From the NCBI RefSeq assembly GCF_045037415.1, contig NZ_CP173438.1: a DNA stretch of 64,000 nt. One strand, given 5' to 3'. The notes below the pieces were generated by a model, which searched no databases, had not been told where the DNA came from, and saw only the letters and a program-made list of their open reading frames with translations. This document shows, piece after piece, positions 21,276 through 25,988 of the stretch; positions within the stretch are counted from its first letter, which is position 1, and the number at the start of each line of letters is the position of its first letter. Both the position numbers and the translations under genes were made by a program. This DNA comes from Escherichia coli (GTDB taxonomy: Bacteria > Pseudomonadota > Gammaproteobacteria > Enterobacterales > Enterobacteriaceae).

Positions 21276-23129
21276 TTATGATGATGCCGGTGCATTTATC
21301 TCCAGCACCAGACTTTCTATCTCAACGCCATACGTTGCATTTTTGGTAATATCCGTCAGCGTCAGCGCATTCAGCCCCAGTGTCAGACTGTCTTTTATGA
21401 CCTGGAATGCCGGGCCAGCCACTCCATTCAGTTTCGGAGTAACCGTGGCACTGCCGGCGGTGAACACCAGCTCCAGCGTCTGCCAGTCGTTACTGTAATT
21501 CCCGAACTCGCCCAACTTTGTGTTTCCTGCTTTCTTGTGATGCATCAGATTCAGTTTGCCGTCTGTGGTCTGGGTGAAGAACGACATCAGGAACGGGTTA
21601 CCAGTCCCGGTCATCGCCACGACGTCAGGTAACGCTACATCGGTATACAGATAAATTCCCAGACCGAACTGATTGTTGGTCAGTGCGCCTGACAGTCGAA
21701 ACTTACAGCTCAGTCTGCCACCCCGTGTCAGCAGGGAGACTGCGTCATCCACCGGGCGCGTCAGGGACCAGGCTTTATTGCTCTGCTTGGTGATCTTAAA
21801 TACACCATCTGACAACTGAATTCCGCCATTCTTAATGCTCCAGCCCTGCGCAGCAGCATCTCCGGCTGTCGGCAACAGGGAGATTGTGCGTACGGATGCA
21901 TCTTCAGACGGCCCCGATGGCGTGTCGCCGCCGGGCGAGGGTTTGATTTCCGGTGCCTTACCACTAATGAAGGCTAAGGTGCGACCGGCTACGTTCAGAA
22001 TAGCAGTTGCCATACGATCGGGAATAATGCCACGACGCGCCCATGAGCTGAAATGCGTCGGGCGATTTGATGATACCCAGTTTTTGTTCGTTCGGGATGC
22101 CGAACCGTAATAACCAGACCCGGCAATATCAGGATCTTCTGACGGGTTGTTTGTCGGTGTATTAACTCCGCTACCATCGGTCATAAAGGGAACAAAATAA
22201 ATCTGCTGGGATTCTTTACCTTTATATGCACCATATACCACTTCATATTGCGTACCGTGTTCTTGTTTCCACGCGTATGTCGTGTCGCCACAAATCCAGG
22301 GGACTGATGCCGGACTTCCACCGTGACACTGCGCCGCCAGCCCGGCAAGGTCAGCACGGAACTGCTGTACCATTGCAAGAAATGCTGCTGGCTGCTGGGC
22401 GTAACTGGCATTCGTCATATCGAATTCCCCCTGCATCCAGCATATCGCCAGCAAAACGTTTTTCGGGTTTTTCTGCAATGCTGCCTTCGTGCGGAAAAGC
22501 AGATCCTGATATAACGGCTTACCCACTCCCCAGCGAGCCGAATCCTGACTGGCCCCCGTGGACTCGCTGAATGTCCCCTCCGTGCCCTGGGTGAATGCCG
22601 AACCACCACGACAGCATGGTACCAGCAGGATCCCCGCATTATTAGGGATATACGGAAGCAGTTTTTTGGCAATATGTAAGCCCTGTCCGACACAGCCGTA
22701 CTGCCCTTTGCTCAGGTCAGCCCGGGGATGGTTAATCGTACTCATATCCTGAACATCATGCAGACAATGGTCAGCAGGAATGATGTCGTTAAATACGCAT
22801 ACTTCACCACCGGGAGTCACTGTGTTACGACGGGCCAGTTGCTTAATGCGCGGATGGGGCGCATCGTATGAATCCGGAAGCGGAAGCCCTTCACCGTAAG
22901 CCATGGCATTGGATTGCCCGGCCAGTACGATGACGTAGTACCACTCCGGCTCAGTTGCACCACTGACGACCACATCACCTTCTGCTGCAATCGCCTGCAT
23001 CAGGGTATAAGGGGTTATGGCCACCGGACTACCAAACGGCTGCCAGCCCTCTTTCAGTTTATGTGTCAGCTTTTCCGCAAGATCTGACGGCGACGCCGCC
23101 CTGACAACATCATAGTGTTTAAATGCCAT
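21276..23129 (-). CDS. nanS-p: Prophage sialate O-acetylesterase NanS-p (N-terminal DUF1737-like domain plus SASA esterase)
   Basis: MAFKHYDVVRAASPSDLAEKLTHKLKEGWQPFGSPV then VIVLAGQSNAMAYGE esterase motif; matches the gene found downstream of stx in Stx phages. Confidence 0.8.
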   Translation of the reverse strand: MAFKHYDVVRAASPSDLAEKLTHKLKEGWQPFGSPVAITPYTLMQAIAAEGDVVVSGATEPEWYYVIVLAGQSNAMAYGEGLPLPDSYDAPHPRIKQLARRNTVTPGGEVCVFNDIIPADHCLHDVQDMSTINHPRADLSKGQYGCVGQGLHIAKKLLPYIPNNAGILLVPCCRGGSAFTQGTEGTFSESTGASQDSARWGVGKPLYQDLLFRTKAALQKNPKNVLLAICWMQGEFDMTNASYAQQPAAFLAMVQQFRADLAGLAAQCHGGSPASVPWICGDTTYAWKQEHGTQYEVVYGAYKGKESQQIYFVPFMTDGSGVNTPTNNPSEDPDIAGSGYYGSASRTNKNWVSSNRPTHFSSWARRGIIPDRMATAILNVAGRTLAFISGKAPEIKPSPGGDTPSGPSEDASVRTISLLPTAGDAAAQGWSIKNGGIQLSDGVFKITKQSNKAWSLTRPVDDAVSLLTRGGRLSCKFRLSGALTNNQFGLGIYLYTDVALPDVVAMTGTGNPFLMSFFTQTTDGKLNLMHHKKAGNTKLGEFGNYSNDWQTLELVFTAGSATVTPKLNGVAGPAFQVIKDSLTLGLNALTLTDITKNATYGVEIESLVLEINAPASS

Positions 23130-23389
23130 GGTTCTTTCCACCATCTGAAAAATGATTCTTTAAAATACCTGACATGTAATACAGAAAAAACACAAAACCA
23201 TACCTTAAATAAAAACCTCATCATCAAGCAGATATGCATGGATAAACTACAAGACGAGATATAAACCACCCTGCATTTAAATAAACAATAAACAACATCA
23301 GAAAAATAATTCTGCTCTATGGTTTACAATCAAAAATATCATTTATACTTTTCAGAACATCACCAGCAAGGCATAAACAAGGAAACTAA

Positions 23390-23725
23390 ATGAAGTGGAT
23401 TGTGATTGATACAGTTATCCAGCCATCATGCGGAATATCTTTTTCAGTCATATGGAGTAAAATAAAATTAATAATCTGGTATCAATCGGATGCTTTCTTA
23501 CCTCCTGAAAGTATATTTACACTGACTCACACAGGCATCATGCTCAATAACAAAGTGCTACCTGTAACCATTTACAACGTAGTACCATTCAATAAAACAT
23601 TCTGGAATTTAATCAAAAACAGCCAGGAATGCCCTACAAATACAGATAACGTATTGAATGAATGCTTTAATAACCGTTGCACTCTGCAAATATGTCCTTA
23701 TGGACTAAAACAACAAAGTCCATAA
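23390..23725 (+). CDS. Hypothetical Cys-rich 111-aa protein in AT-rich DNA
   Basis: SD AAGGAA; hydrophobic N-terminus; five Cys in the C-terminal 30 aa; opposite to the late operon; ends in an 11-bp-stem hairpin. Confidence 0.45.
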
Positions 23726-24172
23726 GGAGTTTACTCACATCTGACAAAATCAATATAAACAGCCCCTCCGGAGAGGGGCTGGAGAGTGGCGCTATGTGCC
23801 ATTGCATGGTGCCGGGTGCCTCCCGGTGAATTCAGTACCAGCACCTGAATCCGCGATTATCCCATATACCTACTCGCTGATTGCCCCTCCGCACAGGGGG
23901 ATTCACCATGCCAGTTTCTTTTAACAAACTCCCCGCAAACCAGACAACAATCAACCGCCTGAATTGTGAAGTATTTAAAAATTTCTCCCGCTAACTGATA
24001 CCCGGCTAACAGTCTGGCGTTTTCTTTTTCAGCAACGGGAAAGCAACAACCACCACACCCGCCACCAGCACACCGTCAGCCAGCACTGACATTATCCGGC
24101 TGCAGCAATGCCATTCACAAAAACAGTAAGCAATCACTTTTTACCGTAACCGGTGATAATCCAGATATGTAT

Positions 24173-24529
24173 CTACCCCAGATGAGTAATCCGAAGTTCA
24201 TCCATACCACAGGTCCTGGCTATTCTGTTGTACTCCTGAACAAGAGTAAATAATTCTGAATTAGCCACCATGAACTCATCGCAAACCCTCTGTATAGCAT
24301 CACTATTCAGAATAATAACGTCTCTTCCCGAAAGACGATCAGGAGTACAGAACAAAACTGTCAAACGGCTGAAGGCCTTTGCTCGTGCTGCATTGACTAT
24401 ATCAATACGCTGCCTAAGGATGAAACACCCCGACGCCTCATCAATATTCACTCTACCCACACCATATGAATGATAAATATTTAATGCTGAAAAAACCATT
24501 AGACCGTATAACAAACACTCAATCAACAC
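24173..24529 (-). CDS. Hypothetical 108-118-aa protein in AT-rich DNA (start uncertain, no clear SD)
   Basis: ORF directly downstream of tRNA-Arg at the position occupied by stxA in Stx phages; no recognisable family. Confidence 0.35.
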   Translation of the reverse strand: MLIECLLYGLMVFSALNIYHSYGVGRVNIDEASGCFILRQRIDIVNAARAKAFSRLTVLFCTPDRLSGRDVIILNSDAIQRVCDEFMVANSELFTLVQEYNRIARTCGMDELRITHLG

Positions 24530-24713: not shown

Positions 24714-24813
24714 TGAATACCGATAATGGACCGCCATCGGGGACCCGCCCCCGCACCAACAACCCTGTTATCGTGTCGTCTGCTCTTCCTGATAAGCTAA
24801 TGGCGGTTTGTGA

Positions 24814-24889
24814 TGGTGGCCCTTGCTGGATTTGAACCAGCGACCTGGCGATTATGAGTCGCTCGCTCTCACCACTGAGCTAAAGGGCC
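24814..24889 (-). tRNA. tRNA with CAU anticodon (Ile2/lysidine type or Met)
   Basis: Minus strand GGCCCTTTAGCTCAGTGGTGAGAGCGAGCGACTCATAATCGCCAGGTCGCTGGTTCAAATCCAGCAAGGGCCACCA; anticodon loop CTCATAA. Confidence 0.8.
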
Positions 24890-24938
24890 GGGAGCAGAAT
24901 AATAATGGTGCGTAATTAATTCTGCAATCTCATCCGTT

Positions 24939-25988
24939 TCAAACGATTAAACCCTGAACTTCCCTGACTGTCTGCTCAAAACGTCCGGTCTCCAGCTCAA
25001 CGCCAATCGCACGACGCCCGAGCGCCAGTGCCGCTTTTACCGTTGAACCTGAGCCCATAAAAAAATCTGCAACCAGGTCACCCGGACGACTGCTTGCGCT
25101 GATTATCTGCTGCAGCATTTCTGCCGGTTTTTCGCACGGATGTTTCCCGGGATAGAACTGCACCGGTTTATGTGTCCACACATCCGTGTACGGCACCTGC
25201 GCCGTCACACCAAAATACCGCCGCAGATGCTTATATTCACTCTGCAGCTCCACATACTGCCGGTTCAGTGACGTATACGTATCCACCAGCTGGTGGTGGG
25301 GCTTTTCCAGTTCACCGCGCTGATGTTTCTCTTCTGCCACCCGGGCAAACAGCGACTGTAATTTCAGATAATCGCTTTCGTTCGGTAGCTGCCACTGACT
25401 GGCACTGAACCAGTGCGACACCATGTTTTTCTTTCCTGTGGCATCTGCAATCTGTTTTGCCGTTATCCCCAGGGCCGCGCGCGCATCACGAAAGTAAGAA
25501 ATCAGCGGGGCCATCACATGCTGTTTCAGTGCACTGCCCTTCGCCGCATACCCGGCATCTTTCGGACGATACGGCCCCTGATAATGTTCCGCGAACAGAA
25601 TGCGCTCTGTGGCGGGGAAATACGCCCGCAGGCTTTCCTTGTTGCATCCGTTCCAGCGTCCGGACGGCTTCGCCCAGATAATATGGTTCAGCACACTGAA
25701 GCGTTCACGCATCATGATTTCGATATCAGATGCCAGGCGATGACCACAGAACAGGTAAAGACTTCCGGCAGGTTTCAGCACCCGCCAGAACTGCGCCAGA
25801 CACTGGTCCAGCCACTTCAGGTAATCATCGTCGCCCTTCCACTGGTTATCCCAGCCCTCAGGCTTCACTTTAAAGTACGGCGGGTCCGTGACTATCAGGT
25901 CAACAGAATTTTCGGGTAACGACCGGATAAATTCCAGGCAGTCGGCGTTGATTAACTCACAACTGGATATTTTTACAGTATTAGCCAT
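24939..25988 (-). CDS. DNA methyltransferase (amino-MTase, DPPY motif)
   Basis: 349 aa; LIVTDPPYF catalytic motif and FFMGSGSTVKAA SAM-binding motif. Confidence 0.85.
   Translation of the reverse strand: MANTVKISSCELINADCLEFIRSLPENSVDLIVTDPPYFKVKPEGWDNQWKGDDDYLKWLDQCLAQFWRVLKPAGSLYLFCGHRLASDIEIMMRERFSVLNHIIWAKPSGRWNGCNKESLRAYFPATERILFAEHYQGPYRPKDAGYAAKGSALKQHVMAPLISYFRDARAALGITAKQIADATGKKNMVSHWFSASQWQLPNESDYLKLQSLFARVAEEKHQRGELEKPHHQLVDTYTSLNRQYVELQSEYKHLRRYFGVTAQVPYTDVWTHKPVQFYPGKHPCEKPAEMLQQIISASSRPGDLVADFFMGSGSTVKAALALGRRAIGVELETGRFEQTVREVQGLIV

Follow-up and report, generated by a model that had tools for sequence, protein, structure and literature searches.

Is a prophage late region that combines a NanS-p-type esterase gene, two transfer RNA (tRNA) genes and a DNA methylase gene, and that has no Shiga toxin (stx) genes, a relative of Stx-converting phages, their ancestor, or what is left of one of them after toxin loss? 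This question is raised by a locus of Escherichia coli (contig NZ_CP173438.1 of assembly GCF_045037415.1) that lies on the minus strand at positions 21276-25988 of a stretch of 64,000 nucleotides (nt), which we call the window and to which all positions refer. We consider it very probable that the region is the accessory ('moron') segment with which a Q-dependent late operon begins, in a lambdoid prophage located by ompW in an ST131-type E. coli, and that it belongs to a recombining pool of such segments in which stx is one of several interchangeable payloads.

The cargo slot of the late region

The initial annotation had reported a NanS-p esterase, tRNAs with CAU and UCU anticodons and a DPPY-type methylase in the absence of stx, and all of these elements are indeed found in the region. 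Searches of the 64 kb with Stx2A and Stx2B using tblastn gave nothing better than E=1.7, while the Stx2a phage used as a control matched at 100%. Remnants of stx were found neither by tblastn nor by blastn in the window. The prophage lacks both stxA and stxB, and blastn shows that the interval occupied by stx2AB in Stx phages is replaced. What is directly observed is which other genes are present, how they are arranged and that they are homologous to the late regions of Stx phages. On the minus strand, one finds successively Q, PR'/tR', a gene encoding 65 amino acids (aa), the methyltransferase, tRNA-Ile2, a relic of argN, tRNA-Arg(UCU) and the cargo slot; then come the small RNA gene STnc100, iraM (on the opposite strand), nanS-p, the holin and lysis genes, and the head and tail genes. 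This matches the order Q, (methylase), ileZ/argN/argO, payload, nanS-p, S/R/Rz of Stx-phage late regions, with argN as a relic.

The block from Q to the tRNAs is collinear with three Stx prophages (Stx2a and Stx2e) at 87-94% nt identity, with breakpoints that bracket stx2AB, which bears out the earlier view of an stx-negative relative of Stx phages. In Stx2_EH2246 the order is Q, a hypothetical gene, methylase, tRNA(CAT), tRNA-Arg(TCG), tRNA-Arg(TCT), stx2A, stx2B, iraM (opposite strand), yjhS/nanS-p and holin. Positions 24629-26480 match this phage at 93.75% and positions 21996-23969 at 72%, and the 659 bp left unmatched face 1368 bp that include stx2AB. The Stx2a prophage of strain 00-3076 is collinear with positions 24629-29607 (tRNAs, methylase, hypothetical gene, Q, RusA, DUF968 and hok/sok) at 87.5% nt identity and has the same two breakpoints as EH2246, and the Stx2e prophage of STEC383 matches positions 24624-27335 at 88.8%. 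The cassette that stands in place of stx2AB covers 23970-24628 (659 bp, minus strand), with breakpoints at 24629 and 23969 relative to EH2246 and 00-3076, and at 24624 relative to STEC383. In the alignment, the downstream homology restarts just upstream of the -35/-10-like pair that precedes STnc100. The two breakpoints imply that the toxin slot is bounded by the 3' end of argO, the tRNA-Arg(UCU) gene, and by the promoter region of STnc100.

Flanks that remain collinear with Stx2a and Stx2e prophages up to the very edges of stxAB might suggest that the prophage was once an Stx phage from which stx was deleted (an 'LST' derivative), and the locus shows other signs of decay, i.e. the argN relic and a truncated tciB. 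We nevertheless regard such a loss as highly improbable. No remnant of stx persists at the protein or at the DNA level, and the gap is filled by an unrelated cassette. This cassette is 98.7% identical to that of the non-Stx phage mEp460 (98.8% when the tRNAs are included), and 1182 of 5426 complete E. coli genomes contain it over at least 80% of its length. Another prophage has a distant homologue of one of its genes, ORF92, at the corresponding place of the late operon. These observations are better explained by a recombinational swap than by a deletion. The accessory set itself, described earlier as normally flanking stx, is not specific to stx: parts of it occur in 3508 of the 5426 genomes, and also in the non-Stx elements mEp460 and PPyecE_EH1910.

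The cassette contains an open reading frame of 92 aa (ORF92, 24173-24451, minus strand; phrog_2873, 1.7e-57) with a GTG start at 24451, in a frame that remains open up to 24529. Homologues with as little as 33% identity retain the length and the core of the protein, and the core starts at this GTG. The family has only ~19 representative clusters among 1.8 billion proteins. A homologue with 44% identity is encoded downstream of Q in another prophage, where the order is ORF95, TerB, DUF3927, holins, endolysin and terminase. Neither the single sequence nor the alignment of ORF92 had a match in Pfam or NCBIfam. Its AlphaFold2 model is a helix-beta hairpin-helix (pLDDT, the predicted local distance difference test, of 88.7), for which Foldseek found nothing at E<=0.001 in PDB and BFVD; the best match was prefoldin beta (E 0.038), and the others were generic helical hairpins. 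Eight of the 92 codons are AUA, AGA or AGG. ORF92 is conserved and unusually rich in precisely those codons that the neighbouring phage tRNAs decode, and over 1,100 complete genomes lack a PGAP annotation for it.

The second gene of the cassette (24006-24137, minus strand) encodes a 43-aa protein of the TciB/DUF3927 type that matches phrog_1470 (TciB-like, 1.1e-12) at profile positions 23-51 only. Full-length members have about 50-55 aa. Here, the first ~22 residues, a predicted hydrophobic N-terminal segment, are swapped for an unrelated 12-residue start, and the tciA/TerB gene that precedes tciB in related loci is missing. As DUF3927 matches only the C-terminal part of TciB, the copy in the window has been deprived of tciA/TerB and of the start of tciB. 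Different payloads are found at this position in other prophages, among them the ORF95, TerB and DUF3927 series mentioned above. The non-Stx prophage of the O157 strain 644-PT8 has TerB and DUF3927 after tRNA-Arg, and PPyecE_EH1910, which has no tRNAs, has after the methylase TciA/B and a putative toxin-antitoxin pair, annotated as a plasmid stabilization protein and a transcriptional regulator. One could propose from this that the stretch from the 3' end of argO to the promoter of STnc100 is a defined cassette-exchange site of lambdoid late operons, receiving stxAB, TerB/TciB, putative toxin-antitoxin pairs or the ORF92 family, and that ORF92, given its conservation and its codons, is a functional but undescribed tRNA-dependent factor of the late phase or of the lysogen. 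We hold this combined proposal to be unlikely.

The prophage itself was placed using near-identical genomes. Over positions 1000-46502, the window and the chromosome of E. coli strain 4/1-1 share 99.99% identity, and the 5.5 kb around the region are 100% identical to many O25b:H4-ST131 genomes, e.g. JJ1887. These 5.5 kb are found in 533 of the 5426 complete E. coli genomes. Annotations of the matching records by the NCBI Prokaryotic Genome Annotation Pipeline (PGAP) place the integrase next to ompW, at ~40,600, the late genes all on the minus strand, and tail genes like those of long-tailed lambda, among them J and the gene of a tape-measure protein. From ~40.6 kb on, the window consists of ordinary chromosomal DNA with ompW, yciABC, tonB, cls, opp, adhE, hns, galU and rssB.

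The tRNA genes, the argN relic and the mosaic structure of the prophage

ARAGORN identifies exactly two tRNAs in the window, with anticodons CAT and TCT. The first (24814-24889, minus strand) is an ileZ-type tRNA-Ile2 with a CAU anticodon, called tRNA-Met/Ile(CAT) by ARAGORN and tRNA-Ile by PGAP (72.5 bits with the Rfam tRNA model), and it is base-identical to ileZ of Stx2_EH2246. The second, also called by ARAGORN, is a tRNA-Arg(UCU) of the argO type (24637-24713, minus strand; Rfam, 68 bits), one base apart from argO of the same phage. The count of two given in the initial annotation stands, because neither ARAGORN nor Infernal with Rfam, even at E<=10, revealed a third tRNA in the window. 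It requires one qualification. The 100-bp spacer between the two genes (24714-24813, minus strand) can be aligned base for base to the argN of Stx2a phages and holds an 81-nt relic of this tRNA-Arg(UCG) gene (24727-24807, minus strand), which aligns with the intact argN (TCG) of Stx2_EH2246. The ileZ-argN-argO cluster, with three intact tRNAs (CAU, UCG and UCU), is here reduced to two intact genes and a relic in the middle.

The relic has kept the acceptor stem, the D arm and the 3' acceptor-CCA of the EH2246 gene. Its anticodon arm was exchanged for another sequence that is 4-5 nt longer, and its T-loop reads GCGGGT instead of the TTCGAGT of intact argN. We rejected the spacer as a working tRNA: its fold is cloverleaf-like, with a 3-nt loop in the place of the anticodon loop, and is not significant relative to shuffled sequences (z = -1.25). 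A weaker variant of the unlikely proposal made above for the slot and ORF92 would see in the rewritten argN, whose arm is kept in prophages of the Stx2e, O157 and ST131 groups, a functional tRNA-like RNA of a non-canonical kind and no pseudogene.

STEC383 has the same rewritten arm in its Stx2e prophage, but with an intact T-loop, and PGAP annotates the gene as 'tRNA-OTHER'. Phage mEp460 and the non-Stx prophage of the O157 strain 644-PT8 have the form that has lost the T-loop. These alleles make up a series of three steps, from the intact gene to the rewritten arm and then to the loss of the T-loop. The two-tRNA state is therefore derived and is not tied to the absence of stx. The presence of two tRNAs rather than three, noted earlier in comparison with 933W-type phages, is no distinguishing trait: the relic survives and the same rewritten middle tRNA occurs in a genuine Stx2e prophage. 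The relic-type allele is common: a search of 20,395 records found it at 95% identity or more in ~1,690, which amounts to roughly 30% of the 5,426 complete E. coli genomes.

These results bear on the suggestion that the locus is an ancestor-like backbone, preserved from before the acquisition of stx. TerB/DUF3927-type cargo is indeed taxonomically broad, being found ahead of the lysis genes also in phages of Klebsiella, Enterobacter, Erwinia, Yersinia, Cronobacter and others, and non-stx versions of the locus far outnumber stx versions among E. coli genomes. The suggestion is nonetheless quite unlikely to be right, because the window copy is itself derived: argN decays stepwise from EH2246 (intact) to STEC383 and to the window, there is no tciA, and tciB lacks its 5' end. 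Relative to mEp460, the methylase module has been inserted or deleted, and the locus is mosaic, which leaves no single backbone with one history.

The mosaicism is apparent when the prophage is aligned to the full Stx2_EH2246 genome. The structural and lysis genes (1-21275) are 92% covered at 93-95% identity and the region of interest is 71% covered; the early region (Q to int) has 0% coverage. Dozens of long-tailed phages of the Stx1a, Stx2a and Stx2c types resemble the structural module just as closely, as does the non-Stx PPyecE_EH1910, and about half of the early region is common to non-Stx PPompW prophages and mEp460-like phages. This is ordinary lambdoid mosaicism, in which the late half is part of a pool including Stx phages and the early half of another pool.

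Finally, the features of decay, together with the insertion sequences (IS) and ISEcp1 found in some copies, raise the possibility that the region is inert baggage of a defective prophage, without present function. We find this very unlikely. The reading frames of Q, the methylase, nanS-p, iraM, and the lysis and structural genes are intact, and both tRNAs have normal scores. The region is conserved at 99% or more in 490 records, and a deposited phage sequence, the partial genome vB_EcoS-783R2, matches the structural half at 100% identity.

Genes of the late region and their predicted expression

The operon is headed by a 273-aa Q antiterminator (26564-27385, minus strand; phrog_127/25523, 'anti-termination protein Q-like', E 1e-110; antitermination protein in PGAP). 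It is 90% identical to the Q of the Stx2a prophage of strain 00-3076, which was described with a 273-aa Q and a 352-aa methylase (PMC10462455). By analogy with lambda and Stx phages, we read a candidate PR' promoter at about 26524-26551 (TTGATT-16 nt-TAAATT, minus strand) and a candidate tR' at 26466-26481 (minus strand), where the terminator-like hairpin CCCGCCGCCTGGCGGG is followed by T6. Terminator-like hairpins are located where they are expected in the late region. The 65-aa hypothetical protein encoded between Q and the methylase (26140-26337, minus strand; phrog_331, 5e-37) is found at the same place in EH2246, 00-3076 and STEC383.

The methyltransferase (24939-25988, minus strand) has 349 aa and matches the Pfam family PF01555 (N6_N4_Mtase, 1.1e-43) over residues 29-340. 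It has an N-terminal DPPY (residues 35-38) and a C-terminal FxGxG (FMGSG, near residue 310), placed as expected on either side of a central target-recognition domain. This order of motifs defines the beta class of DNA amino-methyltransferases, which includes M.EcoGII, also of 349 aa (PMC5778455). The protein is 93.8% identical to the enzyme of the 00-3076 Stx2a prophage, and its gene has 93.6% nt identity with that of phage 1720a-02, whose methylase was termed very similar to M.EcoGII (PMC5778455). We class it as a putative M.EcoGII-like enzyme, a type that methylates adenine without sequence specificity, by a link that runs indirectly through phage 1720a-02.

The nanS-p gene (21276-23144, minus strand; phrog_143, 1135 bits; PGAP places the start at 23129) encodes the three expected domains: DUF1737 at the N-terminus (PF08410, 3.7e-15), the catalytic SASA/SGNH domain (PF03629, 9.5e-12) and DUF6645 as the lectin-like C-terminal domain (PF20350, 4.4e-19). 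Its translation shows a GQSN motif, and positions 21000-22940 are 96.8% identical at the nt level to Stx2 phage 86. Esterase activity on Neu5,9Ac2 was demonstrated for other NanS-p alleles (cited in PMC10462455), and the product is here a predicted sialate O-acetylesterase with the NanS-p architecture. Between nanS-p and the holin gene, a spacer of 150 nt (21126-21275, minus strand) has a 12-bp hairpin followed by a U-run at 21165-21193; the small RNAs PasA and PasC were reported at this position in related prophages. The lysis cassette starts with a class II holin (20910-21125, minus strand; PGAP) whose protein is 97% identical to that of the 00-3076 Stx2a prophage.

The iraM homologue (23390-23725, plus strand) faces the late operon. 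It matches NCBIfam NF007393 over its full length (162 bits, for a cut-off of 121), and its protein is 73% identical to the IraM encoded at the same position in Stx2_EH2246. IraM is an anti-adaptor that shields RpoS from RssB. The chromosomal rssB lies at the far end of the same window, at about 63,000-64,000. Next to iraM, STnc100 (23751-23940, minus strand) matches model positions 1-206 of Rfam RF02076 with 132.4 bits (gathering threshold of 47). It is preceded by a promoter-like TTGATT/TTAAAA pair and has a strong intrinsic terminator (23760-23781). In Stx2_EH2246, STnc100 is found 75 nt downstream of stx2B, and it has the matching place in two non-Stx phages. It has been linked to PasD small RNAs and is a common marker of these late regions (bioRxiv 10.64898/2026.05.13.724894).

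Following the paradigm of lambda and Stx phages, transcripts from PR' would halt at tR' in the lysogen. After induction, Q would permit read-through past tR', leading to the expression of the methylase, the tRNAs, ORF92, nanS-p and the lysis genes. The methylase could then modify the progeny DNA against restriction; enzymes of the M.EcoGII type are silent in lysogens, toxic if constitutive, and thought to be turned on at induction to protect phage DNA (PMC5778455). The two tRNAs could supply the decoding of AUA and AGA/AGG for phage genes rich in these codons, and they plausibly serve the codon usage of the phage. ORF92 and NanS-p would be made along with the lysis genes, and nanS-p does rise upon mitomycin C induction in Stx2a lysogens (PMC10462455). 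STnc100 and iraM seem to be controlled by signals of their own and are probably active in the lysogen phase, where iraM would operate by shielding RpoS from RssB.

Some observations weigh against our interpretation of the region and of its working. PR', tR' and the dependence on Q are deduced in this prophage from sequence and analogy. Scans with the consensus promoter found sites no more numerous than in shuffled sequence, and PR' and the STnc100 promoter are therefore taken as readings of the sequence. AUA, AGA and AGG together make up 5.3 of every 1000 codons in the flanking host genes, a figure that rises to 13.9-23.5 in genes of the prophage and to 87 in ORF92, in a comparison that uses a small host sample (1523 codons). 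ORF92 has no PGAP call in any of the cassette-bearing genomes listed, and the searches of Pfam, NCBIfam and Foldseek assign it no function. The window starts inside the tail gene J, with the far end of the prophage outside it, so that the element is seen here without its far tail end. In JJ1887, the tape-measure gene of the prophage is split by ISEcp1-blaCTX-M-15.

Other features of the prophage were noted along the way. IS66, ISL3 or IS1 insertions are found inside the 5.5-kb late region in other ST131 genomes. A gene of the portal region (10673-11278) has internal direct repeats with a period of ~162 bp and self-matches of 88-91%. The early region encodes a hokD/sok toxin-antitoxin locus (29412-29587, minus strand; sok, 120 bits), the DicF small RNA (36015-36066, plus strand; 76.7 bits), which adjoins dicB, and a homologue of QueH, an epoxyqueuosine reductase (29655-30320, minus strand).

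Relation to known Stx and non-Stx phages

Stx-negative lambdoid prophages with nanS-p, tRNAs and a methylase are widespread and already described. Genes of the nanS-p type were recorded in non-Stx prophages (PMC10462455), and less than 3% of the chromosomal esterase-PasA loci adjoin stx (bioRxiv 10.64898/2026.05.13.724894). Given this literature, the annotation of the sequence in hundreds of genomes and the deposition of its structural half as a phage record, the locus must be regarded as known and ordinary: the prophage is a standard, PGAP-annotated resident of ST131 and matters little as a discovery. What is new lies in small details, namely the exact boundaries of the slot, the decay series of argN, the truncated tci module and the unannotated ORF92 family. 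The locus provides a clean worked example in which stx fills one precisely bounded slot where close relatives put other cargo. It also shows that late regions sharing 87-94% identity with their counterparts in Stx2a and Stx2e phages already exist in extraintestinal lineages of the ST131 type, where incoming Stx phages could in principle recombine with them. For annotation, it reveals a conserved 92-aa gene systematically missed by PGAP and an argN pseudogene in the tRNA spacer.

Among Stx prophages, those of 00-3076 (Stx2a, NZ_CP027584), Stx2_EH2246 (LC567837) and STEC383 (Stx2e) share with the window the order Q, 65-aa gene, methylase of ~350 aa, ileZ, (argN), argO and slot. In their late regions, as in the window, the slot is followed by STnc100, iraM on the opposite strand, nanS-p and holin, except that STEC383 lacks nanS-p. 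They differ from the window in the content of the slot, stxAB in their case and ORF92 with truncated tciB in ours. The nanS-p allele of the window is divergent from that of 00-3076 (56% aa identity), and the 20 kb examined in the latter show only patchy similarity to the window upstream of hok/sok. Stx2_EH2246 has a different Q, of 126 aa, and its early region shares nothing with the window.

The prophage has long-tail genes, unlike the short-tailed 933W. A 933W-type identity is ruled out by the 273-aa Q, as opposed to the 144-aa Q933, by the full-length methylase and by the long-tail genes of the lambda kind. The general plan is still that of 933W-type Stx2a phages, i.e. Q, tRNAs (ileZ, argN and argO), payload, nanS-p and S (PMC10462455). 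Most Stx2a phages, including the 933W group, have the 144-aa Q933 and a mere 50-aa remnant of the methylase (PMC10462455).

Non-Stx elements show how the same parts are assembled otherwise. PPyecE_EH1910 and the prophage of 644-PT8, both from enterohaemorrhagic E. coli, have STnc100, nanS-p, a holin and an alternative payload in the slot, and 644-PT8 also has the two tRNAs and the same argN relic, whereas PPyecE_EH1910 has no tRNAs. Unlike in the window, their payload consists of full-length TerB (TciA) and DUF3927 (TciB), to which a putative toxin-antitoxin pair may be added, and ORF92 is absent; 644-PT8 has a helix-turn-helix protein in the place of the methylase. In mEp460 (LR597641), a related 273-aa Q lies upstream and is followed directly by the block of tRNAs and cassette. 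This phage has neither the module of the methylase and the 65-aa gene (24929-26457 in the window) nor nanS-p or iraM, and its downstream genes are different. However, tRNA-Ile, the argN relic, tRNA-Arg, ORF92, the truncated tciB and the start of STnc100 are the same in both, over 1126 bp at 98.8% identity.

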